From Convolutriloba macropyga (taxonomy: Eukaryota), in NCBI RefSeq assembly GCF_964194025.1, contig NC_134471.1, positions 45,694,001-45,758,000 on the forward strand: a DNA stretch of 64,000 nt, given 5' to 3'. Shown here piece after piece: positions 1 to 52,974 of the stretch. Positions within the stretch are counted from its first letter, which is position 1; each line of letters begins with the position of its first letter. Below the pieces are notes generated by a model. That model worked only from the letters and a program-made list of their open reading frames with translations. It searched no databases and had not been told where the DNA came from. A program made the position numbers and the translations under genes.

Positions 1-26
1 AATACTTAAATAGCATTGCAGCAGCG

Positions 27-1400
27 ATGATGTTTATTAGTGGCAAAGAACCCGTAAATAAACCAGGACATCACCAATGGAAAGTAAAAAGAGCAGCTTT
101 AATTTTACATACTTTACTAGGACCAGCTCAAAAGTGGTACTCCACTCTACCAAGTGAAACAAAACTGGATTGGGAAATATTCTGCAAAGAATTCTCAGAC
201 ATATTCGATTCAGAGAAATCAAAAAAACAAGCGAAAATAAAGTTACAACAACTACAGAAACATACGAATGAATCCCTACGATCATTAGCATTACGAATTG
301 GAACATTAGTAAAAACAGCATATTCACTCTATACAGAGGACTATAGAAATAGTGTAATGAACCAAACATTTATCAGATGCTTGGACAACGAAATAAAAAC
401 ATCAGCTTTGAAGAAACATGCAAACCATAAACAAACGCCCAGAGAACCAGAAATGCCATTCAAAACATTAGTCGATAAAATTGACCAGATGGACTTAACA
501 AGAACAATAACTAATAATCATAAAAGATTATATGAATTCAACCAAACTACGTCAAATAACAACGAAAATCTCAAACAAATGAACGCAGCTTGTAACAATA
601 TTAACGATCTAAACCAGAATGACCTGGAACAGTTTGAAGGAGCAATCTGTAACTTTCTTAACGGAATTAACAACACATATGATAGAAAAAACTTGGAAGA
701 CCGAAGTTTGCACTATTTTGCAGCTATTGCAGCTCTTATGGACACAAAAAAGGCAGATGCTTTAAAAGACCACGACGAGAAAGCATTACACGACCAAAAG
801 AAAAGTCATTCTATGGACACATGAGAAATAACCAGAAGCTACCAAATAGAAAAATTGATTCAAACAATGTTAATGAACAAGCACGAAGCAGAACAACATA
901 TAGATCACAATCACGAAATGGATACTGCAATAATCCCATTAGTAAATATAACAGAAATCAACAAGATTTCAGAAATTTTTACAGAAATAACAATGATAGA
1001 AGTGGCAGCTATAATAGAATCAATTATAATAGAAGTAGAACTAATAGCTACAATACAAACAGTAATTATAACAGATACGACAATAGTAGATCAAACTCGA
1101 GATATTCGAACCGTAGTTTTTCAAGACAAAATTCACCATACAACAGAAGTAATAACAATAACTACAACAACAATAAATATAACAGACAAAGAAACTTTCG
1201 CAGAGACTGAAACAGAAGTGATAGATATAGACAACGATCAAATAGTAACAATAGACATTATTCTTACAATAACAGAGACAATAGAACAAGTTCATCAAAT
1301 AGAGAACAAAACAATAGATACCAACCAAGAGATCGCAGTAAAGACGGAAACAGTTACAATAGCTACAATAAAAACAGAATAAACAACATAGAAGGACAAA
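27..1400 (+). pseudogene. gag: gag: capsid-like region, CCHC zinc knuckle and R/S/N/Y-rich nucleocapsid tail
   Basis: ORF 27-824 has gag-like segments (AQKWYSTLP..DWEIFCKEFSDIF, QTFIRCL). After a frameshift near 690, frame 2 reads CSYCSSYGHKKGRC (CX2CX4HX4C, 719-760) and runs into the RSNSRY-rich ORF 821-1210. The TGA at 1208 is a point stop; the frame continues beyond it. Confidence 0.9.
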
Positions 1401-1589
1401 CACAAAATGATGATCCACCTGGAATAGATGAGAACGAGTACTCATCAGAATCATCTAATGAAGACCAAGAAATATTAGATAAATTTTACAACGCAAACGA
1501 AGACACATGCAATACCGTAATAAATACACTAGAAAGCAACCATACCTGGATATTACCGATGTACCAATATAACAAACTAGAACAAGATT

Positions 1590-2921
1590 GTACTAAGCAG
1601 AAACCAATACTCGAAATCGATTTCCTATTATATTCTGGAGCAACATAGAACCTCTTGAACGAAGATACATGGAACGAGATAAAATACAACAACCCAGAAA
1701 TACAACTCGAAAAAGCTAACAAAACACTTACAGCAGCAAATAATATCACCATAGAAACATTCGGGACAGTAACACTTAATTTAACACCAGAACGAACGTC
1801 GAACAGCAGAAATAAACTTCAACAAAACTTTAATATCTATTTTTATATAACACAATGCAATCATAACATTCTGGGAACCCCGTTCTTCGAAGAATATATA
1901 GAAACCATTAATGTGAACACAAATAAACTAACAGTAAATAACTTTATAGATAACAATATTACTTTCTTTATGAACAGAACAAAAGGATATCCCTACTATT
2001 CTAGATTATACCCAATCTTCAATAGAGAACCAATGTACTTTGAGGAAAACCAGCACGAATGCATTACCTTTCCAATACCAATTGTCAATGAAATGGAACC
2101 ATCAAGTGGAAAAACATTTAATAAATCATTCTACTTTTTTGAACCGATAAACAGATACCAAAACTTATCATTCACAGATATAAAAGATCTCTCACTAGAA
2201 AAAGAACACTTTATCGACATATTTCTAATCAACAAAAATCAACATAAAATAACAATCAACACTGGATTACTCGGCTTTATATAACATTCTGGGAACCCCG
2301 TTCTTCGAAGAATATATAGAAACCATGAATGTGAACACAAATAAACTAACAGTAAATACCTTTATAGATAACCATATTACTTTCTTTATGAACAGAACAA
2401 AAGGATATCCCTACTATTCTAGATTATACCCAATCTTCAATAGAGAACCAATGTACTTTGAGGAAAACCAGCACGAATGCATTACCTTTCCAATACCAAT
2501 TGTCAATGAAATGGAACCATCAAGTGGAAAAACATTTAATAAATCATTCTACTTTTTTGAACCGATAAACAAATACCAAAACTTATCATTCACAGATATA
2601 AAAGATCTCTCACTAGAAAAAGAACACTTTATCGACATATTTCTAATCAACAAAAATCAACATAAAATAACAATCAACACTGGATTACTCGGCTTTATAT
2701 ATCAAAACATCACTTTTAGAAAGCACAACGAAGAAATGTACCAAACAAACTCAATAGACTTATTTGCAGTATTATACCATTTAATATACGAAAACGAAAA
2801 CGATATCAATGAAATTTTAAATATACAAGACAATGAAACAATTGAACAAGTCGCAACATTTGAAGGAAAACCTAATTTCAAATGCAAACTCAATATTAAC
2901 AAATGCACGGAAACAGAGTAA
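1590..2921 (+). pseudogene. Aspartic protease (inactivated) and PR-RT spacer
   Basis: IDFLLYSGAT*NLL at 1616-1657: catalytic DSG mutated to YSG, stop at 1646. The C-terminal ILGTPF motif is near 1868. Same frame as gag. Confidence 0.85.
1863..2698 (+). repeat. 418-bp tandem duplication inside pol
   Basis: ataacattctgggaacccc begins at both 1863 and 2281. The two copies differ by only about 4 substitutions. Confidence 0.95.
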
Positions 2922-2933
2922 GAATTCATCCAA

Positions 2934-4400
2934 ATGTTTGATTTTCAGCACCCATATTTAACACAAGAAGAATTGGAAAAAGTAGTATCAATCATATTAG
3001 AATACAAACAAGTTTACGCAACAACAAAGTTTTACGTCGGAAAAACTAAAGTAAAACTGAACCTACCAATGAAAAAAGATGCAATCTTTAAAAAACAAAG
3101 AATCACTAAAGTACCGATACAAATTCGAGAACAAATTCAAAAACTACTCGATGTATTAAAAAAATACGCCATAATTGCACCTGTCAATAAAGAAAAACTA
3201 TCAACGGGAAATATCTTCACAAACCCCGTAATAATACTACGAAAAAGAGAATCCTTAAAGATCGTATTGGACGCTCGATACTTGAATAGCATGATAGATG
3301 AATCCAAATGCAATTGGCCCATTGAACCTGTTGACGTGGCACTAACACGAATAAACGGAACAATATTTACAACAGCTGATCTCAATAGTGCGTACAACCA
3401 GATACCACTAGATGAACAATCAATGAGATACACTCATTTCACAATCGGCAATGAACAATATTGCTTGAAACGATTTTTTTATGCAATATCAATAGGACCT
3501 GCAGCCTTTGCATCAGTACTAACACACTCTCTTTACCCCTTAATCAGAAAAGGAACAGTAATCACCTATGTCGATGACATTTTTATCCAAACAAACTCGT
3601 ACGAACAGATGTATGAAACACTGATAGAATATCAAAAAAATACTATTGAAGAAAACCTTAAAGCAGCACCTGATAAAACGTATTTCATGCTAAAAAAAGT
3701 CAAATTTCTAGGACACATTATAGAAGACAAGAAAGTAAAACCACTAACTTCAAGAATTGATGGTTTCCAAAAACTGGAACCACCAACAAGTATGAAAGCA
3801 CTCCAAAGATACCTCGGAACAATAAACTTTCTTGCAAAATATATCTACGGCATGCAACCATTACTACAACCATTATATAACCTTCTACACAAAGAAAGTG
3901 ATTTCAAATGGACAAAAGAACATCAAACAATTTTCGAACAAATGAAAAGAACAAAAACACACAATTTAGAGTTAACAATGCCAGATACTACGAAACCCTT
4001 CTACATAGTAACAGATGCTTCGAATACAGGCATAGGCGCAGCATTACTACAACAACAACCAACTGAGAAGAAAATGAGATTATTCTCAGCGAATTCAAGA
4101 CTATTCACACCTATAGAAATGCGACTATCCACACTAATTCGAGAATGTTCAGCAATAATAGTCTCTCTAACAGAATATGAATTCTTGCTAACAGGCTAAA
4201 ACCATCCAATTGTATTATTTACTGATCACAAACCGATCATTTACCTCTTCACTCAGAAAAAAAAACCTAGCAATAGAGTCTACAGATTTCAACTCATTCT
4301 AATGAAATTTCCAAATTTACACATTGTTTGGACAGAGGGAAAAAACCTAGCACTCCCCGATCTTCTGAGTAGAACAATTGATGAAGAACATATTACTAAA
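2934..4400 (+). pseudogene. pol: Reverse transcriptase and RNase H
   Basis: VLDARYLN, DLNSAYNQI, ITYVDDIFI, VKFLGH, IVTDAS. After the stop at 4197 the frame continues with FTDHKP and LPDLLSR. Confidence 0.97.
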
Positions 4401-5109
4401 ACTCGTGATATAACAGTGGAAATACCAGAAAACATAGTTTTTCTTCGCGAAAACACCTTTTGCAAATAACCTAGAATGCAAATACAGCTTATGTAACAAC
4501 ACAAATGACACAAAAAGTCACAAAAAACACACCACCCAGTATTAGCAAACATACATAACATTTATTTCGAGATAAACATCGATAAAAACGAATATTGTCC
4601 AATTTCAATCGAAAAATACAATACCGAAACTAAAACCAATTTAGTACCAAAATATAAACCAAAAATAAAAAACTGGCAATCTCCAATAGTAGAAAAAAAC
4701 GATCTCATTATTGGGAAAAACCAAAAAGGACCCTATACAACACATCACGATAATGACTACCTAAGACTGATCAATAACATAAACTTAAAAACAAAACAAC
4801 AACAAAATTACGAAAACACGAAAATATCAGATATCTTCTGTGACGAAAAAACAAAAGTAACTGAAGAATTAATAAGAGAAACAAAAATATTAGATCTTGT
4901 ACTTCATAAAGTAAAAATGTGGAAAAAACATAACAATAAACCGCACTCAGTAACAATGGAAATACGTGGAAACAAAGGACTATTCCCATACTTTAGAAAG
5001 TTTAAATCAATAATAGTTGATGAACGATCTGGAATAATCAAAATAATCATAATCATACACAAAAAAATCGACACAAAGAATCTGTTTACCATTGACATTG
5101 GTACTCTGT

Positions 5110-6407
5110 AAATTCTATGAGAACCATTGCATTGACCTAGTAGGTCACACAGGCCTTGAAAAAACAAAACGTAAAATAATGGACAAAATACTGTTTTCCA
5201 AACCTCAATACTTGGCTAAAAATAATAATAGCTGATTGTATACAATGGCAAACAAACAAAGTGTTTGCCAATACGAGAACAAAAAGCAAACAAGAACAAT
5301 TAGCCACAACAAAAACATATTTCAACGAAATGATAATGGTCGACACAAAAGGACCAATCCACCCAACTTCTGAAGAAAAAAACTATATCTTCGTGATAGT
5401 TGATGCAATTTCACATTACGTAACGATAAGGTGTGCACCAAAAAATAACGCACATTACGCATTCACAGCATTATTCAAACATTGGTTCATGAAATTCGGA
5501 CTACTCGTAGAAATTAGATCGGATAACGGATCAGAATACATTAACACAGAAGTAACACACCTTTGTAACTATTTTGAAATCAAATTCAAACCCTGTACAA
5601 CCTATGAACCCTGGACCAACGGTCTAGTAGAAGGAACAATTAGAATAATTGGACAAATTGTTCGAACTTTATTACAGGATAAATACAATAATTGGTCACA
5701 GAAAGCAAAATTTTTCCCCTACGCATATAATACACAATACCAAACAAGATTAGGTATGTCACCATATAAAGTTGTTTTTAACCAAAAACAACGAAAGTCA
5801 ACAAAGATAAAACTTGGAACAACAACAGATGAGATGGGAAACTGCAACCCAACTGAAACAATTACATGTAACACACAACCAACACACACCCATTTAGAAA
5901 AACATTTTAGTCACCCAAAAATTGCAAACCTTCAGAAAGGAACATTTGCCAAATGGTTCCTAAACAAAGAAAAACACTACAATGAAACATATAAAACGAT
6001 AACCTAAATTCTACAAAACAGAAAAAAATTAACGGATAAAATAAATCTTAGATTCAGAACAGCAAAACCACTCGAGAAAAATACTTTTGCATTAGTAACA
6101 AATCAACAACAAGTTGATGGAGTTTATAAAAAAAACTTTTACCTCTAAAAACAGGACCTTATCTTATCATCGATAAGCCCACGGAAACAACATACATACT
6201 AAAAGATAACAATAAAGAACAAATAACAATACACGGAAATCACATTGTACCATACTACCCTAAAGAAAAACATATAAAGTTGGAACTACAAAACTATCTT
6301 CCTACAAAAAAAATACCAATATTGAAACAACCACACGAAAAAGTTAAACGAGAACGAGCAATACAACAATCAGATGAACCGAAAAATCATCAATATAATC
6401 TTCGCAA
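5110..6407 (+). pseudogene. Integrase (decayed HHCC region, DDE core, C-terminal region)
   Basis: H..GHTG near 5125-5155; CIQW (C2 mutated) near 5236; MVDTKGP, IRSDNGSEY, NGLVE, AYNT..LGMSPY. Ends in YNLR just before the gap. Confidence 0.95.
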
Positions 6408-9882: not shown

Positions 9883-10143
9883 CACAATTATTTGTTTATA
9901 TTGGAAGGTAAAACTGAAACTGGACAAGAAATAAAACTTTTTTGGTGAGAACAACATTTTGAATTACTCAAGAACACAGCACCTTGCACCGAAACAATTA
10001 CGGAATTTGAAACGCTGAAACAATTAATTAACACAGATAGGTGTGTTGATATAAACAAACTACATACAGTTTTTCTAGTAGTTTGCAAAAAAGAAGCTAT
10101 AGAATTGTTAGACGATAAACTAAAAGAAGAGAACCATACATGA
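9883..10143 (+). pseudogene. Remnant of an unknown accessory ORF
   Basis: Protein-like frame HNYLFILEGKTETGQEIKLFW*EQHFELLKN...DDKLKEENHT with one internal stop. No recognisable motif. Confidence 0.35.
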
Positions 10144-10690
10144 TACCTATTATAGTCATAGTTGTGTATCTATAGAAGCACAAGAACTTGCTAGTGCGGC
10201 ACCTTTACGTGTCAGTTACATTAGTAGATAACTGTCACTTTGCAGTGGAGCATTGTATACAAAACAAATTTTGCAAAACAATTTCACATTTAAATAAAGT
10301 TACGATATAACATACTATCACACACACGCACTTCCTACAAAACAATTAATACAAACAAAAACACAGTAATTTCAGTTTCAAAAATTTATTTCCCAGACGC
10401 ATTAATAGCAAGATACATACAATTATCTAAAATAATATTCTTCCTAACTATCTTTCTAGTACCCTGCATAGTTGTTATTTCTACGTACTTAGCAATAGTA
10501 ACAATAAACGAAGTTATCAGAAACCGTAGAGTTATCTATGCAAGTCCACCAGTACAATAATACAGTAACAACTAATGAACGAAATTCACACCGATATATA
10601 CCATATATGTAAAACCAATACAGATAATATAGAACTAGAAATTTTTAAATTCATTAAAGTTGCACTCCTAATTTATTTCTTCCTTCGCAT

Positions 10691-12126
10691 GTGTTTAGGT
10701 TTAATAGAATATTTCATGAACCTATAATAATTGATCCTATCTCAGATATAGAAGAATCAATATATTACAGGCTACACTACCAAAAATTCTATTTACAAAT
10801 AAGATTCCCTGAAAATTCACCATTACACGGCAGCGTTATTATTTATCAATTAAATCTTCGCCTAGAAAATAACGAAATTTGCATATATAATCTAGGAGCA
10901 CAAACACAGCCACCACAACAAGAACTTATACCACTAATAATACTAGCACCATCATACATTCAACTTCCCTCACACGGACCTAGTTCAGGAGCACGAATAT
11001 AATCCGCAAAAATTGCGTCATCAAACAATAACCATAGTAACAACAATAACAATCAAGAAAGACCACATCATAACGAAGTCACAGATTTAGCAAATATACC
11101 AACATCCCCGGAAGTAGATGATAATTTAAACCCAGGAAACGAAAATCCATACACTGTACGGCGAGACTGCCCCGAAAGAAGAGACCTCTTAAGAGCACGA
11201 CGTAGATCTTCTTTATCATTTCCAACACAAGATTCAACATTAGTTTCAGATGGTTCAACAGATATTGATTCCACCATAATTAGACCTATAGAAGCAGGAC
11301 AGTCAGAACCTCCAAGTAGAACTGGAACACCAACATTGCGCAAATTTAGTATAGGTTCACCAAGTGATAATTCGGCTTATAATACAATCAGAACACCAAC
11401 ACCATCCGAAATAAGAGCAAACCCCTTCTTACCACCTACATTCCAACAAAGACAAAACTTTAACTTTGTTCAAGAACAGTTCCGAGTACAACCACTACAG
11501 TCACCAAGTAGCTCACTCTTGTCAGCAACATCACCACAATCCGCAAGTACTAGCTCAACACCACGAAGAGCAAATCAAACTTCATCATCAAACACATCAG
11601 TAAGTATAGCAAGAGTCGATCTGACAGACTCCTTACAACCACCGAGGAATACAGCTTTATCCCCAGCGTCATTTATACCAGAAATAAGACTTCAATTAAG
11701 CCATCCTGGTAGAACACGATCAAGACCAATACTAAACCCAAACCCAACCACTCGAAGTAGGACTAATGAACACACATATCTTTTTGCATTAGATCACAAA
11801 AGTTGGAATCCACCACTACCACTATACGGACCCACTAATTTAGGAGACACACTTACAAACTGGTCACGAAATAGATTAATTAACACCCTTGAAGTCTTAG
11901 CAAATCCAAGTCTATAACTCAAATTTAACACTACAATAAAATACGACACTATCTTTAAACATCCATTTCATGCAACTACACCATCGATAATAACAACTAC
12001 GACCCAGCACCTTTTATTTGCACTGATTTTATATATAAAGTTGACAGATAGAAAAAACAAACATTAGGATTTGCAACATTCTATAATCCACACACCGGTT
12101 TATCAGATACATGTCGCTTCAGTTAA
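10691..12126 (+). pseudogene. Accessory ORF upstream of env: S/T/P-rich middle and conserved C-terminal domain
   Basis: ORFs 10691-11002 and 11336-11917 are in one frame. The C-terminus (GDTLTNWSRNRL..HATTPS..FICT..PHTGLS..C) is conserved in the inverted copy at 30951-31216. Confidence 0.7.
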
Positions 12127-13230
12127 AAGCCATAATACTAATATTGTTATTAATAATAACATACATTTACATGAATATAGAAACAAAAACACAATTAGAA
12201 CACAGACTAAATAACCGTGTTAAACAACGTATCAAGGATCGTATAAAAGAAAGAATGGCAGTACAGATAAAAAAATTTCTAAACAAAAACAAAGCAATAA
12301 ATACAAATACATTATACACATTCAACTAGGAGAAATTCAATAACCTTGAAAAACATATATTGAACAATAACACCAAATTTAAAACTAATCCACAATATTT
12401 CACCTATGACACCATAATAAAAGAACTAGAAGAGTTTAAAAACAGTTCAGACTACGAAGCAATGTGGGAAATAGCCATTCATAAATGGACACGAAATTGG
12501 AATTTCTATAGAGAACAATTAACAAACAGTATAATAGAGAAATTCAAGATGAACAATAAAAGACAAAAAAGACAAGCAAAAGTAGACTTTGTAGAACTAA
12601 CAGGACAAAACATTAATGGCTCTGCAACTGGACCACAAGACGTCTTCATAGAACATTACGATTGCGATGCAGAAGAAATTACTAATGTTAAGTATTATGA
12701 ACTAAACAAAATTAGTACATGTAAATTCAAACCACTCGATTTAGATTTGACAAAAACCGAAGTACAACTATTATCAAAAGCACAAGCAGTAGAAATAAAA
12801 GCGTACGCAGTTATTGGAACAATCAAAGAACGCGTGGAATGGTGTTCACAACACACTGATTATCTTAGAGCTAACATACCTAGTTATTACGTCTCAGATG
12901 CACGAAGAACAAAACTATTAGATGCAGATGAAGTTTGAAACGAACTCGCTAGAATTAACCTCCTAAAAACACAAAATATAAACCAACACGATATAATATT
13001 TCATTTAAATACATAGCAAACCCACCACTTCAGAAAAAGATCGAAGACATGCAAGGCAGAATACAATTTGAATTTGATACTCCTATTGTACCCGATGTGG
13101 ATACCAAATGAAATTTAAAATGCTTTGTCAAACTGCAAGAAAGGACCAAGAAAACAAAACAGAATAGATATACTAGATTAGACATTAGAAATAAAAGAAG
13201 TATCATTAATACTAAACTTGGACACTGAAG
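12111..13230 (+). pseudogene. env: Envelope glycoprotein, N-terminal part, class III fusogen-like (chuvirus/Monjiviricetes G-like)
   Basis: Hydrophobic N-terminus (AIILILLLIITYIY), furin-type RQKR, then HYDC..NVKYYELNKISTC..EVQLLS..IKERVEWCSQH. The spacing matches the remembered YDC..C..IQLLQ..R..YC..H pattern of chuvirus-type glycoproteins. Stops and a deletion are present. Confidence 0.7.
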
Positions 13231-13269
13231 AAACATCAAATATGGGAACAAGCACATTCGATCACCTAG

Positions 13270-13910
13270 TAGCAAAAGCATCTCAGGATCTCTCAGCATA
13301 TAGCGTATTTGAACACGAAATTTTCCAACTTAGTTTCAACTTTCTCCATTCCACTCCAAAAGATGTACATAACAATAACTTTCGTGTACATGAAAACAAA
13401 CTGATCCACAATATGATCTAGCACACCTTCTTCTTCAGAGATAAAGAGCCTTATACAGATAAAAGCTACATCTATATCAATGATCATTTAACATCCCCCT
13501 ACTTTCTGATTTATGGATATAAACTGAAATGGGAACACATCATTGGAACACTCCGAAATTTTGACCCCATAAATAATTATTACATCTTCCTACCTAAGGA
13601 TTCACCTGAAAAACCCTTGATGGTACCTCTCGAGGCACTTGAACGTTGCGAAGAGTACCATACATATCATTTAGAAGGAAGCGTAACAAACAGAGCTTTC
13701 AGTAACAGTACTCAATATAACAATGAACGAAAAGCAACAGATCTTGAAAAAGAGCTAAGGAAGACTGTAAAAGCTTCGATTACGGAAACAAAAATCAACG
13801 AAGTCACTGACCTGTTGGCGTACTTTCTCTCACATGATGAACATTTTGTAAAGGAGTATAAACATTACAGAAATCGGAATAGCCATCCTCAGCAAACAGA
13901 GAAATTGTAA
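13270..13910 (+). pseudogene. Accessory ORF remnant downstream of env
   Basis: Open frame from about 13488 to 13910 (LTSPYFLIYGYKLKWEHIIGTLRNFDP..PLMVPLEAL..), preceded by a frameshifted segment. Confidence 0.5.
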
Positions 13911-14959: not shown

Positions 14960-16300
14960 ATTATTTGGAATGTTGAAATACATTATGTCGTATCCGGCGA
15001 ACAATTATAAAATAAGCGCGCAGACAGATACTTTTACTAAATTTAGAAGTATGAAATAACCACTAATAGGAATCAGGCGATGGGACATTTTTGTCCACAC
15101 ACATTAATCCTATAACCGTGTTCCAAAACCTTTACTAAATTTAAACAATACAGAAACCATTATCAAACTTACAACATTTACAGATTCGATAAACGCTTCG
15201 TATAACATAACCGTAACAACTAACAAAACCACAAAACTGTAGAAGTATGATGAAGCAGTCTGTACGGACTAAATTCATCAGAATAAATCATGAGTCCGGG
15301 AGACATTAATTGAAATAATACATGTTCTTATCCAATAACATAATCCAAAATGGCAGAAAAATCACAAGTCACTATACCGTTTGTTATGAAAAAAGGAAAT
15401 AACTTTTCGTTGTTGTCAACAACCTTCATGTTGTTACTCACCCAACTACACTCGATTTTTCCATCGAATTTCATATAACATTTAGAACAAAGGTTTTATT
15501 TTTTTTTACAACCGGAAGTGAAACTACGTAATAACAGAACATTAATACCGCCTAACATGATAGGCTAAATCGAAAAAATTCTGAACATCTAACAGCTAAC
15601 ATAAGCAAACAAAAAGAATTCAGGTAAGTCAGGTAAGTCACTGGACATCAGGATCGCCTTCGACATCAACATCGGGCCTACCCAAAAGGATCTTCATCCA
15701 CTGGAAGTGGTACTGGAATAGATACTTTTGTGGTTGTCGATGTTCACTCCTTGCTACGTGGGCAACCTATGTCTAGGAATTGACCGACTGACAAACCGGC
15801 GAAAGCGCAGCACACTCAACAAAAAGAAAAGAAATTCCTCCAAAGAGATTAAAGAGAAATTGAAAGTAGTACTCACAAAAACTTCTAAAAAACTTAAACC
15901 CCGGAAAAATGGAGTCAATGTTGACTTCCGACAAAGAAGATTTGAAGACTTTAATATTTAAATAAATAAAGACTGAAAATACTCTGGTTAAAATAGAAGA
16001 AATACCTTTCCTCCGATGCTTAACTAGTTTCCCTTACACACAACTGTTTAGTTGGTACCGATCAGAGTCATACACAAACCTGATATAATAATAAAGTATA
16101 TTTCTCTCTCTCTCTACTCCGCTCTTGTTTTGTATTGAGATATAAGTTAGACTTTAGCAATGGGGCCCGTGCACTGTCTACTGAAGCTCAGATAGAAGAG
16201 TAGCAGACTAGAGATATAGAACTTCAGTTAGTCAGGTAAGATACTATAAGACCTCAGTAGAGTAACCTCTCAGGGTAACCCTACTCGGGACACGTCTTAA
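14960..16300 (+). repeat. Putative 3' LTR-like terminal region
   Basis: Short purine run near 14954, AATAAA at 15961 and near 16090, a (CT)n tract and a terminal hairpin at 16256-16287. The last ~230 bp resemble the inverted remnant at 51567-55513. No 5' LTR is available for comparison. Confidence 0.35.
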
Positions 16301-17368
16301 TTGCTCTTGAACTAGTTATTCTCTATTAAATCGTTTTGTCATAACTGTATTATGGCCTGAATGCGCAGTGGTGAGTGCATTAGGTAATGTATCAGGAGGT
16401 CAATGGTTCGAATCTCAGCTGGGATCCCGTTTTTTCGACGTTTTTGTCTTAAATAAAATTAACGACAACTAACACGTATGGGCTTTGATTATTTTTGTCT
16501 CAGGATATCGATTAAAAAACGATGATTTCTTACAAGTGAAAAAAAAATTCCTTAACACTGGCTTGTATTGAGGTACAGCGACAAAAAACGACAATCGTTC
16601 CGTAGGAAATCGTCGTTTTTATCGTTTTGTTGCGGTTTCCGTCGTTTTAAGTGTTAGAAATGATCGTTTCTTCGTCGTTTTTTCGTCGTTTTTTTTTTTA
16701 TTTTTTTTGTCGTTTTTTTTATCAAATGAAATTGTTGTTTTTTGATCGTTTTCTTGTCGCTGTTTGTCGTCTCTTATGTCGTTTTTTTTTTCAAAACAAA
16801 TTGTCGTTTTTTGGTCTTTTTTTCGTAGTTTCATTGCACTTGAACTAAGTTTTCTCTATTAAATCATTTTAGCATATCTGTATTATGGCCTGATAACGCA
16901 GTGGTGAGTGCAGCAGGTAATGTATAGTGAGTTTAATTTTTTGAATATCAGCGGGGATCCCGTTTTTTGTCGTTTTTCTCTTACAAAAAACGATGAGAAA
17001 TGATCATTTCCTACATAAAAATAACGACGAAATAATGAACAAAACGACAACTACCACTTAAGGGCTTTGATCGTTTTCGTCTAACGACAACGATTGAAAA
17101 ACAACAATTTCTTTCAAGTAAAAAACGAAATTTTTCAACATAGGCCCGTGTTGAGGACAACGACGAAAAAACGACAACCTTTTTGTAAGCAATCGTCGTT
17201 TTTTTTTATTTGTCGTCGTTTACGTCGTTTTGGCGTGGTTTTCTTCGTTGTCATTAGTTTCTGTGTTTTAAGTCGTCTTTTAAGTTTTAGAAATGATTGT
17301 TCCTTCGTCGTTTTGTTTGTAATTGGTTACATCGTTTTTTCTTTTTTTTTCAAATGGAGTCGTCGTTA
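16300..17368 (+). repeat. Two monomers of the ~560-bp tRNA-like-cassette satellite
   Basis: Heads at 16354 and 16887 match those in the 31.2-45.5 kb array. Confidence 0.92.
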
Positions 17369-19693: not shown

Positions 19694-21560
19694 TGACTTC
19701 TCTACCAATCACAGAGAGGGAAGACTCTATTCTTTTATCTAAGATGCGTGAAACTTTATTCACTGCAGTCTGCTACCATTTTCCACACCTTATGTGAATA
19801 TCTGACTGCGGCAAACACTAAATTATTTATGGTAAAAACTGAAATTCTCTTTCAGTGTTTTACTGAGTCGGTTAAACATATAGACTTAGCTAAGTGTGCT
19901 TCTCGCGCAGAAATAGGTAGCTCTGACTATATCAAACTTAAGGCTCTAAAAAGAGTCCATCTCGGGTCTTCCTTAACTTGCGCCACCAATGAGTTAACAT
20001 CATCTAACCACAAAAAAAATTGCACTAAAACAAAAACTATACAGTTAAGCTATCGCATTTTTGCTATTTATTTTCTCTATTTAGATAAAAGGCTCAGATT
20101 CAGGAGAATCAATCCTAGAGAATTTTTTCTAAGCAAACACAGGAAAAAAAGCTTTTGCTGCGCAACTTCCATCATAGAAACAAAATTTGAAACTCTTATC
20201 TCTGCAAATACTGCTGACAATGCAGAATATAAGTTTTCTCGACAACAAGAGAACGAACGATCACTAGAAGACATAAAACCAATCTGCATAACGAAAATTC
20301 TAAATGTTGAAAAATTACGCTTTTCAGTGGGTACAACCTCACCACTGAAAACACACTTTTTCAATATTTATCAACAATTTTCCCTGTCAATAATTGCTAA
20401 AACTTCCCAGATAGCTAGAATAGCTTTTACATCTTATTTGTTTCAAAACTTGAAAACTCGTGCACAGAATTTATTAAACGAGATGCGTTGTTCATACGTG
20501 ATCCCATCACTAACCGCCTTGCCTCGCTAATATATGATTCACTGTTTTGCCCACACTCAGGTGGATTATTAGATTTTCTACAGAAATTTCAATGCGCAAG
20601 CCAGACAGATCAACCAGAAGATCATTTTAAAAACCTTTTTTGAATTTTTAAAAAAATTGACATCTTCTATAAACATGAGCAAAACACTGAAAATGAAGTT
20701 TTTATCCATTTCATAGTCCTTAACACAGTAACGGAAAATGGAATTATCCGAATCATACACAATAAATGTTTGAACACTTCTTACTTGGTTTTTACACAGA
20801 ATTTGGCTTCGTCTCATACGCCATATTTAGGAATTAACAAGACAGATCGCACAAGCCTTCGCACTATTATTACACAAACTTCCTGACAAATTACACCATA
20901 TCTACGATACAGGCTGGTTTCCACAGGATTTTATGTGTATAAAAGAAGTTTGTTCAAATATCATACAAAAACACCACTTACAAATACACAAAAGATTATT
21001 CACGAAAAAAATGCTGAAATTCAACCATTCATGGTAGATCCTAAAAATGGACCAAATATATCCTAAGAAATATCCCCTATGAAAACAATTTCCAGAAGAA
21101 TTCGCATATTCAAAACAAATGAATACAAATCAAACGACACCTCAGCCACTGATTCGAATTCTGCTCTTTTAGAAGACGGCAAAATGTTTTCTTTGCACAC
21201 AATAAATCTCATGTCACTCGCGAAAACTTGAAATAACAAATACGAAAACACTTTCAAAACCACAATTTCAACAGAGTTACCACAATGTAGAAATCAAGGC
21301 CACATCACTTTTACAATAAACGGCAAACGCAAACATGCCCCTACGGAGATTTCAAAGAGAGGGTTCGATAAAATTCAGCTCTCCCTAGAACCAACAGAAA
21401 CAGAAAAACAATCAGACAACGCAAATGACAGCACAACAAGTGATAAATTTGGTTATGCAAAAAAATCCACAAACTAATCAGATAATGATAATTGCTCTAA
21501 CGCCATTGTTTTTACAAGCAGCCCCTATAAAAAAACCTTCTCCAACATTGAGTAAAAAGA
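19694..21560 (+). pseudogene. Decayed long ORF of unknown identity, probably retroelement accessory
   Basis: 260-codon open frame at 19748-20530 flanked by frameshifted protein-like segments; A-rich plus strand. No motif recognised. Confidence 0.35.
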
Positions 21561-23160: not shown

Positions 23161-26100
23161 AATTACTTCCACGTAAAGGGCTTTTGCGCTCATTATGAGC
23201 CACATCCCATAGCCAAGGTTCTTAGTGGTTTCACGCAAAACTTCTTTTGATTTGTGATACTAAAAGTGCAACGACTTGAGTATGGAAGTAGAGTGCAGCT
23301 AGGGGAGCCGATTGTGCCATATACGGTATATAAAAGCTGTTTCGTGACATATACGGTAAATAAAAGAACCTAGACAATTATCAAGCTCTTGCCGTGTTAG
23401 AGTAGTCTTTTGCATAGAAACCTCCTTATATCCTGCCAAAAAAGGACCTTGGCTGATCAATTGAGGTCTTCTTTTGGATCTTGTTGGGGCGCTGTAATGA
23501 CTAGTGTACTGTAGAAATGAAATGAAGTTTGACGGAATGCAAGATGAACTGCTAGAGTTAAGAATAATCCCTAATCAATGGTGGCATTTCATAATCAATT
23601 TTGCCGTCACAAAATGACATGTTGCCGTTGGTTGGTTTTGCCAAAGACAAAAGGTTTGTTGAAGGTTTCTGAATATCATGAATTGAAACTAAGTCTGCTG
23701 ATAATGATTCTCAGGGTACTAAAAATTTGGGCAATCTTTTGTCTAACATGATTGGTATCGAGTTTAACATGATTATGCTGTAGGCACATAAAACTGGACG
23801 GTAACTCTTGACGTCAGCGTATAAATGTGATAACAATGGAGGTTATGTTTTTAAATTTAAGTTTCACTGCTGATTTGAAAAAAAGCATATATGTACAATC
23901 TTGAAACATGCCAATATTTTTCGAAAGTATCGAATTGATCTGGAACTACCCCAGCTTTTTTTCCCTCTTCTTCATCACTTGTTAGCAGAGAGACATCGTT
24001 TAAATTCCATAAATTCTATGAACTTGTTCGAACTAAGTTTCTAAACTTTTTAAATGCACCAAATTACTTCCACGTGAAGGGCTTTGCGCTCATTATGAGC
24101 CACATCCCATAGCCAAGGTTCTTAGCGGGTTAACGCAAAACGTTTTTTGATTTGTGATACTAATAGTGCAACAACTTGAGTATGGAAGTAGAATGCCGAC
24201 AAGGAAGTTGATTGTGCCAAATCAGTCTGCTGTTTCGTGACATATACGGTAAGTAAAAAAAACCTAGACAATTTTTAAGCTTTTGTTGTGTTAGAGTTGT
24301 CTTTTGCATAGAATCCTTCAAAATTGCCAATTAAGGACCTTTGCTGATCAATTGAGGTCTTCTTTTGGATCTTGTTGGTGCGCTGTAATGACAAGCGTAC
24401 TGTAAAAGTGAAATGAAGTTTGATGGAATGCAAGATGAATTGCTAGAGTTAAGAATAATCCCTAATCGATGGTGGCAATTTCATAATCACTTTTGGCGTC
24501 AAAATATGAAAGGTTGCCGTTCATTGGTATTGCCAACGACAAAATGTTTTTATGGGTATCTGGACATCATGAATTGAAACTAAGTCTGCTAATAATGATT
24601 CTCAGGGTACTAAAAATATGGGCAATCTTTTGTCTAACATGATTGGTATCAAGTTTAACTAGATTATACTGTTGGCAAACAAAAAAATTGGGCGGTGCTT
24701 CTTGACGTCAGCCTATAAATCTGATAAAAAAGATGGCACTATAATGATTTGCAAGATGAATTGGTACTGCAAGATGAATTGCTAGAGTTAACAATTGTCC
24801 CTAATCGATGGTGGCAATTTCACAATCAATTTTGGCGTCACAATATGACATGTTGCCGTTCGTTGGTATTGCCAATGACAAGAGGTTTGTTGTCTGCTAT
24901 TAATTCGTTGGTATTGCCAATGACAAGAGGTTTGTTGTCTGCTGTTAATTATTCTCAGGGTACTAAAAATATGGGCAATCTTTTGTCTAACATGATTGGT
25001 ATAAAGTTTAACAAGATTATACTGTAGGCACTTAAAACTGGACGGTAACTCTTGACGTCAACGTATAATTGTGATAACAAGGATGGTACTGTGTTTGAAT
25101 TTAAGTTTCATTGCTGATTTGCAAGAAAGCATGTTTGTACAATCTTGTAACATGCCAATATTTTTCGAAAGTATCAAATTGATCTGGAACTACCCCAGCA
25201 TTTTTTTCCCTCCTTTTCTTCACTTGTTAGCAGAGAGACATCGTTTACATTTCATAAATTCTTCGAAATTGTTCAAACTAATTTTCTAAATTTTTTAATT
25301 GCACCAAATTACTTCCACGTGAAGGGTTTTGCGCTCATTATGAGGCACATCCCATATCCAAGGTTCTTAGCGGTTTCAAGCAAAACTTTTTTGATTTGTG
25401 ATACTAATAGTACAACGACTTGAGTATGGAAGTAGGGTGCCGCTAAGGGAGTTGATTGTGCCAAATCAGTCTCCTGTTTCGTGACATATACGACAAGTAA
25501 GAGATCCTAGACAATTATAAAGCTTTTGTTGTGTTAGAGTAGTCTTTTGCGTAGAATCCGCCTTATAGCCTGCCAAATATGGACCTTCGCTGACCAATTG
25601 GGGTCCTCCTTTGGATCTTGTTGGGGCGCTGTAATGACTAGTGTACTGTAGAAATGAAATGAAGTTTGACGGAAAGCAAGATGAATTGATAGAGTTTAGA
25701 AAAATCCCTTATCGGTGGTGGCAATTTCACAATCACTTTTGGCGTCACGATATGAGAGGTTGCCGTTGGTTGGTATTGCCAATGACAAAAGGTTTGTTGA
25801 GGGTTTCTGGATATCATGAATTCAAACTAAGTCTGCTAGTAAGGATTCGCAGGGTACTAAAAATATGGACAATCTTTTGGTATCGAGTTTACGAAGATTG
25901 TACTGTTGGCATATAAAACTGGGCGGTAACTTTTGACGTCAGCGTATATATCTCATAACAATGATGCTACTGTGTTAAAATTTAGGTTTCATTGTTGGTT
26001 GGCAAAACAACATATTTGTACAATCTTTTAACCTGCCAATATTTTTTCGAAAGTATCGAATTGATCTGGAACTAGTCCAGCTTTTGTTTTCCCTCCCTTT

Positions 26101-26460
26101 CTTCATTTGTTAGCAGAGAGACATCGTTTACATTCCATAAATTCTATAAATTAGAACAAAGTTTGTAATTTTTTTAAATTCACCAATTTACTTCCTCGTG
26201 AAGGGCTTTGCGCTCATTATGAGCCACATCCCATAGCCAAGATTCTTCGCTTTTCACGCAAAGCTTTTTCTAGTTTGTGATACTAAAAGTGCAACGACTG
26301 GAGTATGGAACAATAGTGCCGCAAGGAAGTTGATTGAGCCAAATCAGTCTCCTGTTTCAATTCATTTACAATATAAAAACCTAGACAATTTTTAAGCTTT
26401 TTTTGTGTTAGAGTAGTCTTTTGCATAGAATCCTTGAAAAATGCCAATTAGGGACCTTGC
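23161..26460 (-). repeat. ~890-bp tandem repeat derived from a baculovirus-F-like (class I) env ectodomain
   Basis: Units start at 23161, 24062, 25307 and 26186. The minus strand reads SMQKTTLTRQELDNCLGSFIYRICHET (23339-23418) and NLGYGMWLIMSA (23186-23222). Confidence 0.75.
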
Positions 26461-26461
26461 T

Positions 26462-28037: not shown

Positions 28038-29958
28038 AATTACTTCCACGTAAAGGGCTTTGCGCTGATTATGAGCCACCTCCCATAGCCAAGGTTCTTA
28101 GCAGTTTCACGCAAAAATTTTTGATTTGTGATACTAAAAGTGCAACGACTTGAGTATGGAAGTAGAGTGCCACTAAGGAATTCGATTGTGCCAAATCAAT
28201 CTCCTGTTACGTGACATTTATGATAAATAAAAGAAAAGTAAATCAATCTTTTGTTGTGTTAGAGTAGTCTTTTGCATAGAATCCACTTTATATCCTGCCA
28301 GATAACAACCTTCGATGATAAACTGAGATCTTTTTTTGGATCTTGTTGGGGCGCAGTAATAACTAGTGTACTGTAGAAATGAAATGAAGTTTGACGGAAT
28401 GCATGATGAATTGCTAGAGTTAAGAATTGTCCCTAGTCGATGGTGGCAATTTCATATTCAATTTTGCCCTCACAAAATAACACGTTGTCGTTTGTTGGTA
28501 TTGTCAATGACAAAAGTTTTGTTGAAGGATTCTGGATATCATGAAATGAAACTAAGTCTGTCATTACTTATTCTCAGGGTACTAAAAATATGTGCAATCG
28601 TTTGTCTAACATGATTGGTATAGAGTTTAACAAGATTATACTGTTGGCACAAAAAACTGGGCGGAAACTCTTGACGTCAGCGTATAAATCTGATAACAAT
28701 AATGCTACTGTGTTGAAATTTAATTTTCATTGCTGATATGCAAAAAAGCATATCTGTACAATCTGGTAACATCCCAATGTTTTTTCGAAAGTATCGAATT
28801 GATCTTGGACTACCCCAGCATTTGTTTTCCCTCCTTTTCTTCACTTGTTCGCAGAGAGACATCGTTTGCATTCCATAATTTCTTTAAATTTGTAAGAAAT
28901 CAGTTTCTAAACTATTTAAATTCTTCTTCGTGAAGGGCTTTGGGCTCATTATGAGCCACATCTCATAGCCAAGGTTCTTAGCTGTTTCATGCAAAAATTT
29001 TTTTTGATTTGTGATACTAAGAGTGCAACGACTTGAGTATGGAAGTAGAGTGCCGCTAAGGGAGTCGATTGTGGCAAATCAGTCTCCTGTTTCGTGACCT
29101 ATGGGATAAATAAAAGAACACAGACAATTATAAAGCTTTTGTTGTGTTAGAGTAGTCTTTTGCATAGAATCCGGCTTATATCCTGCCAAATAAGGACCTT
29201 CGCTGATCAATTGAGGTCTTCTTTTGGATCTTGTTGGGGCGCTGTAATGACTAGTGTACTGCAGAAAAGAAAAAAAAATTGTCGGAAAGCAAGATGAATT
29301 GATAGAGTTAAGAATAATCCCTAATCAATGGTGGCATTTCATAATCAATTTTGCCGTCACAAAATGACATGTTGCCGTTGGTTGGTATTGCCAATGGCAA
29401 AAGGTTTATTGAGGGTTTCTGGATATCATGAACTGAAACTAAGTCTGCCATTAATTATTCTCAGGGTACTAAAAATATGGGCAATCGTTTTTCTAACATG
29501 ATTGGTATAGAGTTTAACAAGATTATACTGTTGGCACATAAAGCTGGGCGGCAATTCTTGACGTCAGCGTATAAATCTGATAACAATGATGCTACTGTGT
29601 TGGAATTTAGGTTTCCTTGTTGATTTGCAAAAAAGCATATTTGTACAATCTTGTAACATTCCAATATTTTTTCGAAACTATCGAATTGATCTGGAATTAC
29701 CCCAGCTTTTGTTTTCCCTCCATTTCTTCACTTGCTAGCAGAGAGATGTCGTTTACATTCCATCATTCCTTTAAATTTGTTGGAAATAGGTTTCTAAACT
29801 TTTTAAATTTTTTTCGTGAAGGGCTTTGCGCTCATTATGAGCCACATCCCATAGCCAAGATTCTTCGCGTTTCACGCAAAACCTTTTCTGGTTTGTGATA
29901 GTAAATGTGCAACGACTGGAGTATGGAAGTAGACTGCCGCTAAGGAAGTTGATTGAGC
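28038..29958 (-). repeat. Further ~890-bp F-like env repeat units
   Basis: Units start near 28038, 28922 and 29810. ORF 29461-29664 reads FANQQ..LLSDLYADVK..LLNSIPIMLEKRLPIFLVP. Confidence 0.8.
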
Positions 29959-29959
29959 T

Positions 29960-31216
29960 TCATAAGTCCAGTCAAGTATATCTACTCGATTTTGTTTTTA
30001 CGTTCTTTTAGACATTGTGATTGTGGATTGGTAGCTGCTGTAGGTATCCACGTGGGCTTAGTACAGTCATATACTATTCTCCCATATGCTGGTACCATAT
30101 GTGTATTAATGTTGAATTGAATTCTTCGTTGACCTTCTTCTAATCTTTTTGATAATTGAGGGTTATCTAAGTAATTAAATGAGATGTTATAGTTTGTTGG
30201 TTTGTATTTTGTATCTTGTATTAGGTTAATTATAGCAAGTTCGCTTCTTTGTTCATATGCGTCCAAGATTTTTATTCTTCGAGCGTCTCAAAGTAACTTG
30301 TTTTATAAGCTCTAACGTAGTCGGTGTGTTGTGAACACCATTCTACTCTTTCTTTTTTTGTTCATGTTACAGCAAAGGCTTTTATTTTAACTGCTCGTGC
30401 TTTAGATAATAATTGTACTTCAGTTTTTGTCATTTCTAGGTCTAATGGTTTAATTATACATGTACTGATTTTGTTTAGCTCGTAAAATTTGACGTTGCTG
30501 ATCTAATATGAATGTCTTGTGGTCCTGTTACAGAACCGTTTGCGTTTTGGCTTGTTAATTCTATTAAGTCTATAATTGTTTGTTGACGTTGTTATTTTCG
30601 GTTCAAGTAAAGTTTTGATAAAATACTATCGGTTAGTTTTTCTCGATAGACATTCCAATTATGTGTCCAATTGTCTATTGCTATATCCCACATTGCTTCA
30701 TAATCTGTATCATTTTTAATTACTTCAAGTTCTTTGACCTTGGTTTCGTGTTGAATTACTGGTTGTTTATAATTGGCTGTCATGTTTTTGCGCCGACTGT
30801 GGTCTTTTATGCGTTCTGTCATACAATAGTTTATACGGTCTTTTACACGTTCTTGAACATGTTTGTTTAATATGTTTTCTAATCTTACTTTTGTTTCTAC
30901 CTTGAAGTATATGTATAATATTGTTAGCGTTAAGATCAATATTATGGCTTTTAGTTGAAAAAACATTTGAACGATAATCCTGTGTGCGGAATAAAAAAGG
31001 ATGAAAATCCTAGTGCTTGCTTTGTGTATCTATCAAATTTATAGATGAATTTGGTACAAATAAATGGTGCTGGTGTGGTTGTTGTTATTACAGATGGTGT
31101 GGTGGCGTGGGATGGTGTCGCTAAAACGTTGAGTGCTGCGTTTCGCTGTCTTGTTGTCAGATTAAAAGTGTTAACTAATCTATTCCTTGACCAATTCGTT
31201 AATGTATCCCCTAAGT
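29960..31216 (-). pseudogene. env: Second, diverged copy of the accessory-ORF C-terminus plus class III-like env N-terminus
   Basis: MFFQLKAIILIL.., DYEAMWDIAI..W..NWN.YRE, TGPQD, NVKFYELNKISTC.IKPLDLEMTKTEVQLLSKA, ERVEWCSQHTDY all align with 12111-13200. Confidence 0.9.
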
Positions 31217-33103
31217 TTTTATTTTACTTTATTAAATTTTTTCAGCATACCTGCATTACGGCCTGATAGCGCAGCGGTGAGTGAATCAGGTTATGTTTCG
31301 GGAGTTCAATGGTTCGAATTCCACCGGGAGCACGTTTTTTCTTACCTAAAAATAACGATGAAAAACGACGATTTCATACAAGTGAAAAACAGAATTCCCC
31401 AACATGGGCCCGTGTTAAGGACAATGACGAAAAAAAACGACAATCTTTTTGTAAGAAATCGTCGTTTTCGTCGTTTTGTCGTCGTTTCCATCTTTTGCAT
31501 TTGTTTCCGTCGCTTAAGTTGTCTCTTAAAAAAAGAAAGGATCGCTTCTTCGTCTTTTTTATAGTTTCTTACGTCGTTTTTTTTTCAAATGAAATCCTCT
31601 ATTTTGTAGTTTTTTACGTCGTTTTTTTTTTCAAATGAAATCGTCGTTTTTGATCGTTTTTACGTTGTTTGTTTTGTCGTTTCTTACGTCGTTTTTTTTT
31701 TCAAAAGAAATTGTCGTTTTTTGATCGTATTCCCGTATAGTTTCATTGCTCTTGAACTAGTTTTCCTCTATTAAATTTCAAATGAAATCATCGTCTTCTG
31801 ATCGTTTTTACGTCGTTTTTTTTGGAAGTTTCTTACGTCGTTTTTTTTTCAAATGAGATCGTCGTTTTTTATTGTCTACGAAAAACGATTAAAAAACGAC
31901 GATTTCTTAGAAGTGAAAAACGAATTTCCTCAATATGGAACCGTGCTGAGGACAACGACGAAGAAACGACAATCATTTTGAAAGAACTCGTCGTTTTTGT
32001 CGTTTTGTTGTCGGTTTCGTCGTTTTGTCGTCGTTTTCTTCTTTTTCATTAGTTTCCGTCGTTCAAGTTGTCTCTTAGGTGTAAGAAGTGATCGTTTTTT
32101 GTCGTTTCTTATGTTGTTTTTTCTCAAAAGAAATCGTCGTTTTTTGATCGTTTCTCCGTAGTTTCATTACTCTTGAACTAGTTTTCCTCTATTAAATCGT
32201 TTTAGCACATCTGTATTTGGGCCTGATAGCGCAGTGGTCAGGAAATCAGTAAGTTATGGGGAGTTCAATGGTTGGAATTCCAGCTGGCTCACATTTTCGT
32301 AGTTTTTTTTTACCAAGCAAACGAAGAAAAAACGATCATTTCCTACATAAAAATAACGACGAATTAACGAACAAAACGACATCTACCATGTAAAGTCTTT
32401 GATCGTTTTTGTCTATTCCTACGTTGTTTTCTCTCAAATAAAAAAGTGGTTTTGATCGTGTTTCCGTAGTTTCATTGCTTTTGAACTAGTTTTGCTCTAT
32501 TAAATAGTTTCAGCATCGCTGCCTTACGGCCTGATAGCGCAGTGGTGAGTGCATCAGGTAACGTATCGGATGTGCATTGGTTCGAATTCCACCGGGGAAC
32601 ACGTTTTTTTCTTACATAAAAATAACGATGAAAAACGATCATGTCCTACATTAAAATAACGACGAAATAACAAAGAAAACGACAACAACCAGTTAAGGGC
32701 TTTGGTAGTTTATTTCTAAGGAAAACGATTAAAAAACGACGATTTCATACAAGTGAAAAACAGAATTCCTCAACATGGGCCCGTGTTGAGGACAACGACG
32801 AAAAATGACAATCTTTTTGTAAGAATTCGTCGTTTTCGTCGTTTTGTTGTCGTTTTCTTCGTTTTGTTGTCGTTTTCTTCGTTTTCATTAGTTTCCGTCG
32901 TTTAAGTCGTTTTTTAGGTTAATAAATGATTGTTTCTTCGTCGTTTTTATTTCAAATGAAATCGTCGTTTTTTCATCGTTTTTTTTCGTCGTTTTTTGTC
33001 GTTTCTTACGTCAATTTTTTGTAAAAGAAATTGTCGTTTTTTGATCGTTTTTTCGTAGTTTCATTGCTCGTGAACTAGTTTTTCCCTATTAAATCGTTTT
33101 AGC

Positions 33104-33108
33104 ATATA

Positions 33109-33152
<44 letters not shown>

Positions 33153-33158
33153 TATATA
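33104..33158. repeat. (TA)n microsatellite
   Basis: Visible dinucleotide run immediately upstream of a satellite head. Confidence 0.97.
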
Positions 33159-45100: not shown

Positions 45101-45374
45101 TAAGTCGTCTTTTATGTGTAAGAAAAGATCTTTTCTTTGTCGTTTTCTTGCAGTTCCTTACGTCGTTATTCTTTCATATGAAATCGTTGTTTTTGATCGT
45201 ATTTCCGTAGTTTCATTGCTCTTGAATAAGTTTTTTGTCTATTAAATCGGTTTAGCATATCTGTATTAAGAGCTGAGAGCGCAGTGGTGAGTGCATCAGG
45301 TAATGTATCGGGAGTTGAATGGTTCGAATCCCGACGGGGATCCCGTTTTATACAAGAAAATAACGATGAAAAAA

Positions 45375-45509
45375 CGGGTTTTTCCCATTATAGCCCCCCC
45401 CACCTTAGTGGTCAGATAATCTATAGCCCCCCCCCAATCATGGTAATTATAGCATAATGGGGAAGGGGCTTAATTTTTATGGGGGGGGGGCTATAATGGG
45501 GAAGAACCG
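45375..45509. mobile_element. 135-bp palindromic MITE-like insert in the last satellite unit
   Basis: cccattatagcccccccc ... ggggggggctataatggg inverted repeat. Confidence 0.7.
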
Positions 45510-52960: not shown

Positions 52961-52974
52961 GAATTTTTTGAATT

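Follow-up and report, generated by a model that had tools for sequence, protein, structure and literature searches.

A decayed envelope gene with a predicted class III fold, derived from a family of ~21-kb Ty3/Gypsy LTR elements

Results

An envelope remnant within a decayed LTR element

The window, a 64-kb stretch of DNA, carries on its forward strand the first third of an envelope gene (env, 12111-13251), surrounded by the remains of a long LTR retroelement (Table 1). The sequence features that the initial annotation had listed, namely a signal or anchor segment, RQKR and a YDC/VQLL/ER..WC..H pattern, were all located between 12111 and 12854: the ATG at 12111 is followed by hydrophobic codons 7-20, RQKR occupies 12561-12572 (codons 151-154), HYDC 12654-12665 and WC..H 12840-12854, where the VQLL and ER..WC..H motifs end. 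This is not a chance resemblance, because a 202-aa open piece (12330-12935) matches the Pfam family PF24664 (Monjiviricetes_fusion) with an E value of 2.8e-6 and 26 bits, at a cut-off of 27 bits.

The env of the window copy is broken by in-frame stops at 12327 and 12936 and by frameshifts after ~13010. A deletion at 13251/13252 removed ~3.6 kb, including about two thirds of env, and joined the env remnant to the end of the downstream ORF F. The copy is 70-80% identical to the young subfamily. Its gag-pol includes a tandem duplication of 421 nt and starts ahead of the window, with the 5' LTR and a decayed primer site lying ~1.7 kb before base 1. ORF E, which has no Met in unbroken copies, is interrupted at 11915 in the window copy and overlaps the env start with its 3' end.

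Table 1. Features of the element and of a related fragment in the window
Feature	Position	Strand	Basis
Decayed gag-pol (gag, protease, RT, RNase H, integrase)	1..6405	+	Pfam RVT_1, RT_RNaseH, rve; tblastn 67-88% to unbroken copy
Accessory ORF A, matched part (136 aa, ATG start in unbroken copies)	9886..10128	+	65% identity; dN/dS 0.20; no Pfam match
Hydrophobic AUG mini-ORF, 11 codons, ending ~15 nt before the hairpin	10140..10175	+	read in sequence
Conserved ~66-nt hairpin	10191..10256	+	20 predicted pairs over 23 copies
Met-free hydrophobic accessory ORF B of 58 aa with putative ATT/ATA start	10384..10560	+	dN/dS 0.07
Accessory ORF C, 50 aa, hydrophobic C-terminal half, weak-context ATG	10575..10727	+	73% identity; dN/dS 0.07
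Met-free accessory ORF D of ~88 aa with putative ATT start	10730..11002	+	dN/dS 0.25
Accessory ORF E, ~379 aa, Ser/Pro/Thr-rich, putative ATT start	11012..12123	+	dN/dS 0.08; tblastn
env start and hydrophobic signal or signal-anchor (codons 1-21)	12111..12173	+	hydropathy up to 2.55 in unbroken copy
env pre-domain ending in RQKR furin-type motif; stop at 12327 in this copy	12174..12572	+	motif conservation; two predicted helices
Predicted class III ectodomain, first part (to residue ~373 of 1129), with stops and frameshifts, ended by deletion	12573..13251	+	PF24664; fold matches of unbroken copy
Accessory ORF F, C-terminal remnant (553 aa in unbroken copies, downstream of env)	13252..13910	+	73% identity to residues 336-553
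3' LTR (TG...TA)	15910..16299	+	75% identity to LTR of unbroken copy
Second, more decayed family fragment (ORF E end, env residues 1-359)	29941..31217	-	inverted repeats I1-I3; tblastn

The segment 15232-16294 is repeated upstream (L021:7187-8274) over 1.09 kb at 91% identity, compared with an LTR of ~0.4 kb, and may be the remnant of a tandem copy or reflect a longer LTR in the subfamily of the window copy. A ~557-bp satellite with a tRNA-like segment occupies 16297-17330 and 31200-45400, and the 3' LTR adjoins one of its units. Other arrays in the window consist of ~890-bp and ~129-bp units (23337-29386 and 51719-52967), and a 277-codon open frame at 19697-20530 gave no credible Pfam match.

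A family of 21-kb Ty3/Gypsy elements

In the genome, at least 150 env matches were scored out of 1763 candidates, 47 of them in open frames of at least 1000 aa. Recovery of full-length copies, as had been proposed, yielded six unbroken elements. All six young copies fetched whole measure 21.0-21.2 kb, have ~425-bp LTRs (TG...TA) that are 98.6-99.8% identical and are flanked by 4-bp target duplications. Over 14 nt, including the CCA, the primer site can pair with a host tRNA-Met. A gag-pol frame of ~2550 aa is followed by ~3 kb without long frames, ORFs A-E, an env of ~1130 aa, ORF F of 553 aa and the LTR. The order was identical in three additional copies, two of which are from other subfamilies and one of which is truncated. 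Among the 47 long env frames, at least 35 are preceded by an RT match on the same strand at a distance of 8.6-9.0 kb, in a count that used 73 of 150 RT rows; of the remaining 12, the three that were fetched all have pol sequence upstream.

The gag-pol shows the Gypsy order of Pfam domains (Retrotrans_gag, RVT_1, RT_RNaseH, Integrase_H2C2, rve). A protease DSG motif was seen in the sequence ahead of RT, where Pfam did not detect a protease. DUF5641, a Bel/Pao-type domain, was absent from the family gag-pol by Pfam, while a flanking Bel/Pao element, used as a control, does match it. The closest PDB sequence match of pol is the Ty3 Gag-Pol (E 3.8e-49). Domain order, paired LTRs, short target duplication and tRNA primer site are thus those of Ty3/Gypsy (Metaviridae) elements. 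The initial annotation was right in linking the env to a Gypsy rather than a Bel/Pao pol, the two lying within one LTR pair in 6/6 young copies; it had pictured them as attached, but they are not adjacent, since ~5.5-5.7 kb and five small ORFs lie between them. Gag-pol would make the particles, with reverse transcription primed by tRNA-Met.

Several observations concern the surroundings and distribution of the family. One copy sits inside a Bel/Pao element. A tandem array of tRNA-Met-like genes lies at C1:77668326-77749220, and the 3' end of these genes matches the element primer site. A sequencing run labelled as a second organism (run X5, organism B) holds 66% of the sampled words (L052:1-10000) and covers 30/30 bins, so a near-identical element occurs in organism B. 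Contigs of run X1, like X5, also cover 30/30 bins of the sampled element; contigs cannot show splicing.

The unbroken envelope has a predicted class III fold

The unbroken env matches PF24664 with 45.2 bits (cut-off 27). A search of 1.84 billion representatives returned 476 matches, among them full-length homologues at 25-31% identity; in later comparisons the env was 21-29% identical to each homologue outside the family. Neither the env sequence nor the env profile found a significant match in the PDB. From a 53-row alignment, AF2 produced an env model with a pLDDT of 70 and a pTM of 0.47. Among the 38 Foldseek matches listed from the PDB, all are herpes gB (best E 1.7e-9). In BFVD, the best entry is unnamed (E 2e-22) and the named top rows are glycoproteins of chu-like, qin-related and xinmoviruses. 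VIA gave a borderline Z of 8.8, with gB domain IV aligned at an rmsd of 3.6 over 159 residues. TM-scores of the model are low (0.2-0.37); despite this, three structure libraries agree, and we predict a class III fold of the herpes gB/chuvirus G type. Profile search and structure prediction, the checks suggested for the proposed chuvirus-G-like envelope, hence both returned class III matches with the unbroken protein. The ectodomain contains 12 Cys and lacks two domain I Cys that are common in homologues.

The dN/dS of the ectodomain, estimated from one pair of copies of two subfamilies, is 0.05. Together with the predicted fold, this value points to a protein with probable fusion activity. Germ-line infection would be the purpose of such an env, which as a trimer would enable particles to fuse with cells nearby, for instance those of the germ line.

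A pre-domain ending in a furin-type motif

Between the hydrophobic segment and the ectodomain lies a pre-domain of 115-135 aa that ends in a conserved R-X-K/R-R, read here as a furin motif according to the furin consensus. Of the 60 family proteins that span the region (76 were examined; 13 without the HYDC motif and 3 starting too late were left out), 56 have the motif ~30 residues ahead of HYDC, as do 19/20 loci; it was found at the matching place in 0/23 outside homologues. In 22 of these 23 homologues, a YDC-type motif follows a signal-like leader at residue 28-84; in the remaining one, the leader is long and its end forms a membrane segment. The arrangement is therefore as unusual as the initial annotation had suggested; its figure of ~150 aa for the extra domain, however, includes the 21-aa leader. 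A second Met, at env codon 21 (12171-12173), directly follows the hydrophobic segment and is shared by all subfamilies seen. Gene callers choose this Met as the start, so that the signal is lost from their gene models.

The pre-domain varies in length and sequence, with 47% identity between subfamilies compared with 88% for the ectodomain (pre-domain pN 0.31, pS 0.76). In the one pair of copies compared, dS is saturated in the pre-domain and in the C-terminal part of ORF F. Two helices are predicted, the second of which is Trp-rich and conserved across subfamilies. A complex prediction of pre-domain and ectodomain scored 0.00, and matches of an Atlas search with the pre-domain were all under 0.9.

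These features are consistent with a precursor that would enter the secretory pathway through its N-terminal hydrophobic segment and from which furin would release the pre-domain, leaving a fusogen that starts ~28 residues before HYDC. The N-terminus of the cut protein would thereby resemble that of homologues after signal cleavage, and priming by furin, with the pre-domain cut off from the precursor, is a likely role of this region as judged from its sequence. Conversely, the N-terminal segment could be an uncleaved anchor that keeps the pre-domain in the membrane as a second subunit, comparable to the leader peptide of foamy viruses, which is a membrane-retained subunit. With I-C-M or I-Y-M at its end, the segment offers signal peptidase a poor site, and the conserved Trp-rich helix would suit a retained subunit; two transmembrane segments flanking gB-type ectodomains are also noted in PMC13524379. 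On the other hand, the hydrophobic core spans ~14 residues only, and the variability of the pre-domain in length and sequence fits poorly with an anchored subunit. We consider retention in the membrane a serious alternative, with a chance of perhaps one in three, to the furin-released pro-peptide that we favour.

Accessory ORFs are under purifying selection

The six accessory ORFs are under purifying selection. For ORFs A-E and the N-terminal part of ORF F, dN/dS is 0.07-0.25 at a dS of 0.9-3.2, as obtained by simple counting from one pair of copies of two subfamilies. Unbroken ORF F has no Pfam or Atlas match; its homologues among the matches listed (at least 120) are 75-98% identical and all unnamed, and a single-sequence model reached a pLDDT of 34.

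ORFs B, D and E contain no Met in 525 codons. Their putative starts were compared in the first 30 of 351 loci matching a hairpin pattern, which represent few subfamilies and are not independent. The first codon of ORF D is ATT in 29/29 aligned loci, that of ORF B is ATT in 14 and ATA in 15 of 29, and that of ORF E is ATT in 24 of the 26 loci in which the motif could be located, the other two being a false match and an ACG. At almost all of these codons, A stands at -3 and G at +4, a Kozak-like context. The mini-ORF was scored in 26/30 loci, 25 of them MIP-type like the window copy, and in most loci its end is separated from the hairpin by 15-19 nt. The hairpin pattern gave 351 matches compared with 0 for the reversed control, and no Rfam family at gathering score was found for the hairpin. 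Over 23 copies, one of the 20 predicted pairs is changed on both sides. As the inner stem was chosen by the search pattern, its invariance is circular.

Possible translation of ORFs B-E and env

The 1.4 kb preceding env is depleted of ATG: nine copies have 2-4, compared with shuffle means of 9.5-11.5 (0-2 of 500 shuffles as low), and the depletion holds in all three frames and is not seen inside env. The window copy is weakly depleted (5 ATG compared with 10.6; 14/500 shuffles as low). Met-free ORFs with ATT/ATA starts and an AUG-depleted stretch of this length suggest leaky scanning of a polycistronic RNA, in which env and ORFs B-E would be translated from one subgenomic RNA by ribosomes passing AUU/AUA and weak AUG starts. 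From the sequence pattern, we regard scanning from B or D to env as having a little better than an even chance. Counting against simple scanning, the env AUG has a weak context (C at -3), a strong-context out-of-frame AUG occurs ~1 kb upstream in 6/10 copies, and an AG lies 8 nt upstream of ORF B in 20/20 loci, which fits a splice acceptor. Internal Ile codons that are nearly as fixed (D50, ATT in 27/29; E83, ATA in 26/27) count against ATT as a start.

The env of Drosophila gypsy is made from a spliced mRNA that brings an AUG from an upstream exon. By analogy, ORFs B, D, E and env might each be expressed from separate spliced mRNAs, and the ATT codons would then be ordinary isoleucines. Besides the AG before ORF B, an AG lies 5 nt before ORF E in 16/26 loci and in the same phase, as this explanation would have it. 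However, no in-frame AG is present between the upstream stop and the ATT of ORF D, the AG before ORF E is missing in some subfamilies in which the ATT is kept, and splicing leaves the three-frame AUG depletion over 1.4 kb unexplained. Separate spliced mRNAs therefore seem to us an unlikely explanation, perhaps one chance in four. A mixed model, with one splice before ORF B followed by scanning, fits all data.

Origin of the envelope

Other gB-type env families are present in the same genome. Five of six sister loci fetched are 18-20-kb LTR elements with a related pol (RT 43-44% identical) and an env directly behind pol that has no pre-domain. In a quick tree without a Bel/Pao outgroup, the RTs of these sister families and of the 21-kb family form one long-stemmed clade with 100% SH-aLRT support. 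The sister-family envs align with the family env over ~750 aa at 24% identity (E 1e-44 to 1e-46 in a 27-protein set), and the viral PF24664 profile matches it in two stretches (E 4e-12). In an env tree without a viral outgroup, from which 2 of 27 rows were left out for a missing N-terminal motif, the family env is about equally distant from all homologues and sits, apart from the sister-family envs, on a branch of 2.0 changes per site.

The sister families (C5, C12, C4, C8, C3; L053-L055, L059-L070) have ~0.9-1.1-kb LTRs and small ORFs ahead of gag; their env is followed by several Cys-rich ORFs, of which two gave weak RING-finger Pfam matches under the cut-off. In another family (C10, L056-L058), a 769-aa gB-type env is accompanied by small downstream ORFs, and no pol or LTR pair was found within the 30 kb fetched. 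A further RT family (P0253-P0276) is 66% identical to the RT of the 21-kb family. A search of viral contigs with a distant env homologue found no match. One env (P0133) and one pol (P0287) lie on contigs of equal size (10,639), a hint of linkage only.

The initial annotation had proposed that a Gypsy lineage independently captured a class III fusogen. Capture by the 21-kb family, from a chu-like virus or another element and with the pre-domain included, would account for the very long env branch and its position apart from the related Gypsy envs, and env is indeed separated from pol by ~5.5 kb, with a cassette in between that was not seen in the sister families. Yet the sister envs match over ~750 aa and far more strongly than the viral profile, the related pol families have homologous envs in the same order, and an ancient association of pol and env is argued in PMC13524379. 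Because sister Gypsy families carry homologous envs, a capture specific to the 21-kb family is not supported and appears improbable. Inheritance of env within the giant Gypsy clade is most likely as the simplest reading of the RT clade; since env lies on a long branch away from the sister-family envs, an exchange of env within the 21-kb family is possible.

Chuvirus-like G occurs in Bel/Pao elements of mosquitoes (cited in PMC13524379), and one family copy lies inside such an element, so that an env derived from Bel/Pao, or a free endogenous chuvirus gene near a Gypsy pol by chance, also had to be considered. This origin was rejected, and its chances are negligible: in 6/6 young copies, a single LTR pair with target duplications encloses both pol and env, and at least 35 of the 47 env frames are linked to RT at a fixed distance.

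Taken together, our results suggest that the window env is a decayed, 3'-deleted copy from a ~21-kb Ty3/Gypsy LTR family whose predicted class III env is likely made as a furin-cut precursor behind a family-specific pre-domain, with env most likely inherited within the giant Gypsy clade and ORFs B-E and env likely translated by leaky scanning. We assign this reading as a whole a probability of roughly 0.8.

Relation to known systems

Ty3/gypsy elements with an HSV/gB-type, Chuviridae-like env have been described across animals (Chary and Hayashi, eLife 2026, PMC13524379), so that the pairing is known from the literature and, taken alone, adds just one further example. The assumption of F-type env as the sole type in Gypsy elements is not supported in view of that paper, and an independent capture of a class III env by a Gypsy lineage loses its novelty, as the sister families also carry homologous envs. 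Like the 'ancient errantiviruses' described there, the family has a Ty3/gypsy pol, gag-pol-env between LTRs, near-identical multiple copies and a gB-like env resembling Chuviridae G. Judged by the operational definition of HSV/gB-type errantiviruses in that paper, family members have uninterrupted gag, pol and env between LTRs in multiple copies, the window copy being broken, and a gB-like ectodomain that is preceded by an N-terminal hydrophobic segment and followed by a transmembrane segment (by hydropathy, model and fold searches).

What is distinctive in the 21-kb family is its size, the pre-domain with furin motif and the cassette of accessory ORFs. Unlike the elements described in PMC13524379, it spans 21 kb with a single gag-pol frame of ~2550 aa. 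Pol and env are separated by ~5.5 kb containing five ORFs, an ORF of 553 aa follows env, the furin motif is preceded by a pre-domain, and there is a tail of ~260 aa. The furin site in HSV/gB-type ENV is described there as not always conserved. The prefilters given in that paper, whose set comprises 1512 elements, allow a POL-ENV gap of at most 1 kb and a region of at most 10 kb, or a manual extension by 3-5 kb, and would likely have missed a 21-kb element with a ~5.5-kb gap. Gypsy elements with an env can thus be as long as 18-21 kb and have many accessory genes under selection, a layout likely to be overlooked by screens with a size cap. A literature search, mostly of open-access papers, found no giant or furin-bearing gB Gypsy element of matching layout and no retroelement with AUU leaky scanning.

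More generally, there may exist a lineage of giant, complex invertebrate endogenous retroviruses whose class III fusogen has acquired a furin-released pro-domain and whose env has become the last cistron of a polycistronic RNA behind AUU/AUA-initiated accessory genes, in a pararetrovirus-like manner; this view is tentative and its odds fall somewhat short of even. A gB-type fusogen with a probable furin-controlled pro-domain would be a natural case bearing on class III priming. Non-AUG polycistronic translation in an animal retroelement becomes directly testable through three Met-free ORFs that are under selection and have conserved ATT/ATA starts.

With chuvirus and other Monjiviricetes glycoproteins (PF24664) and herpesvirus gB, the family env has in common a Pfam match above the cut-off and a predicted class III fold comprising long beta-hairpins and a central helix, as well as the match to domain IV. 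It differs in being encoded by a retroelement and in an identity of 8-15% in structural alignments to chuvirus G and gB, and the pre-domain-plus-furin arrangement was seen in the family env and in none of the sequence homologues examined. Burro, a giant Gypsy element of planarians, is likewise giant, bears an env and has accessory functions; according to PMC6431247, its env is in frame between gag and pol within a polyprotein of ~4900 aa, while that of the 21-kb family is a separate downstream ORF.

The layout before env is most reminiscent of rice tungro bacilliform virus, a plant pararetrovirus in which, according to PMC5902531, a short AUG ORF before a hairpin is followed by an AUU start and an ORF with a weak AUG, and the last large ORF is preceded by ORFs free of AUG. 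The AUU ORF and the AUG-free ORFs permit scanning over 900 nt, and the layout, with one AUU ORF, lies in the 5' leader of the pregenomic RNA. In the Gypsy family, by contrast, it is internal, with up to three ATT/ATA ORFs and a small hairpin. A pararetrovirus-type shunt with leaky scanning, as shown by translation assays, involves a short ORF that ends 5-10 nt before a stable stem, a non-AUG start at the landing site and AUG-free ORFs further downstream. The DNA of the family shows such a layout, with a longer gap in most loci and a stem without covariation.
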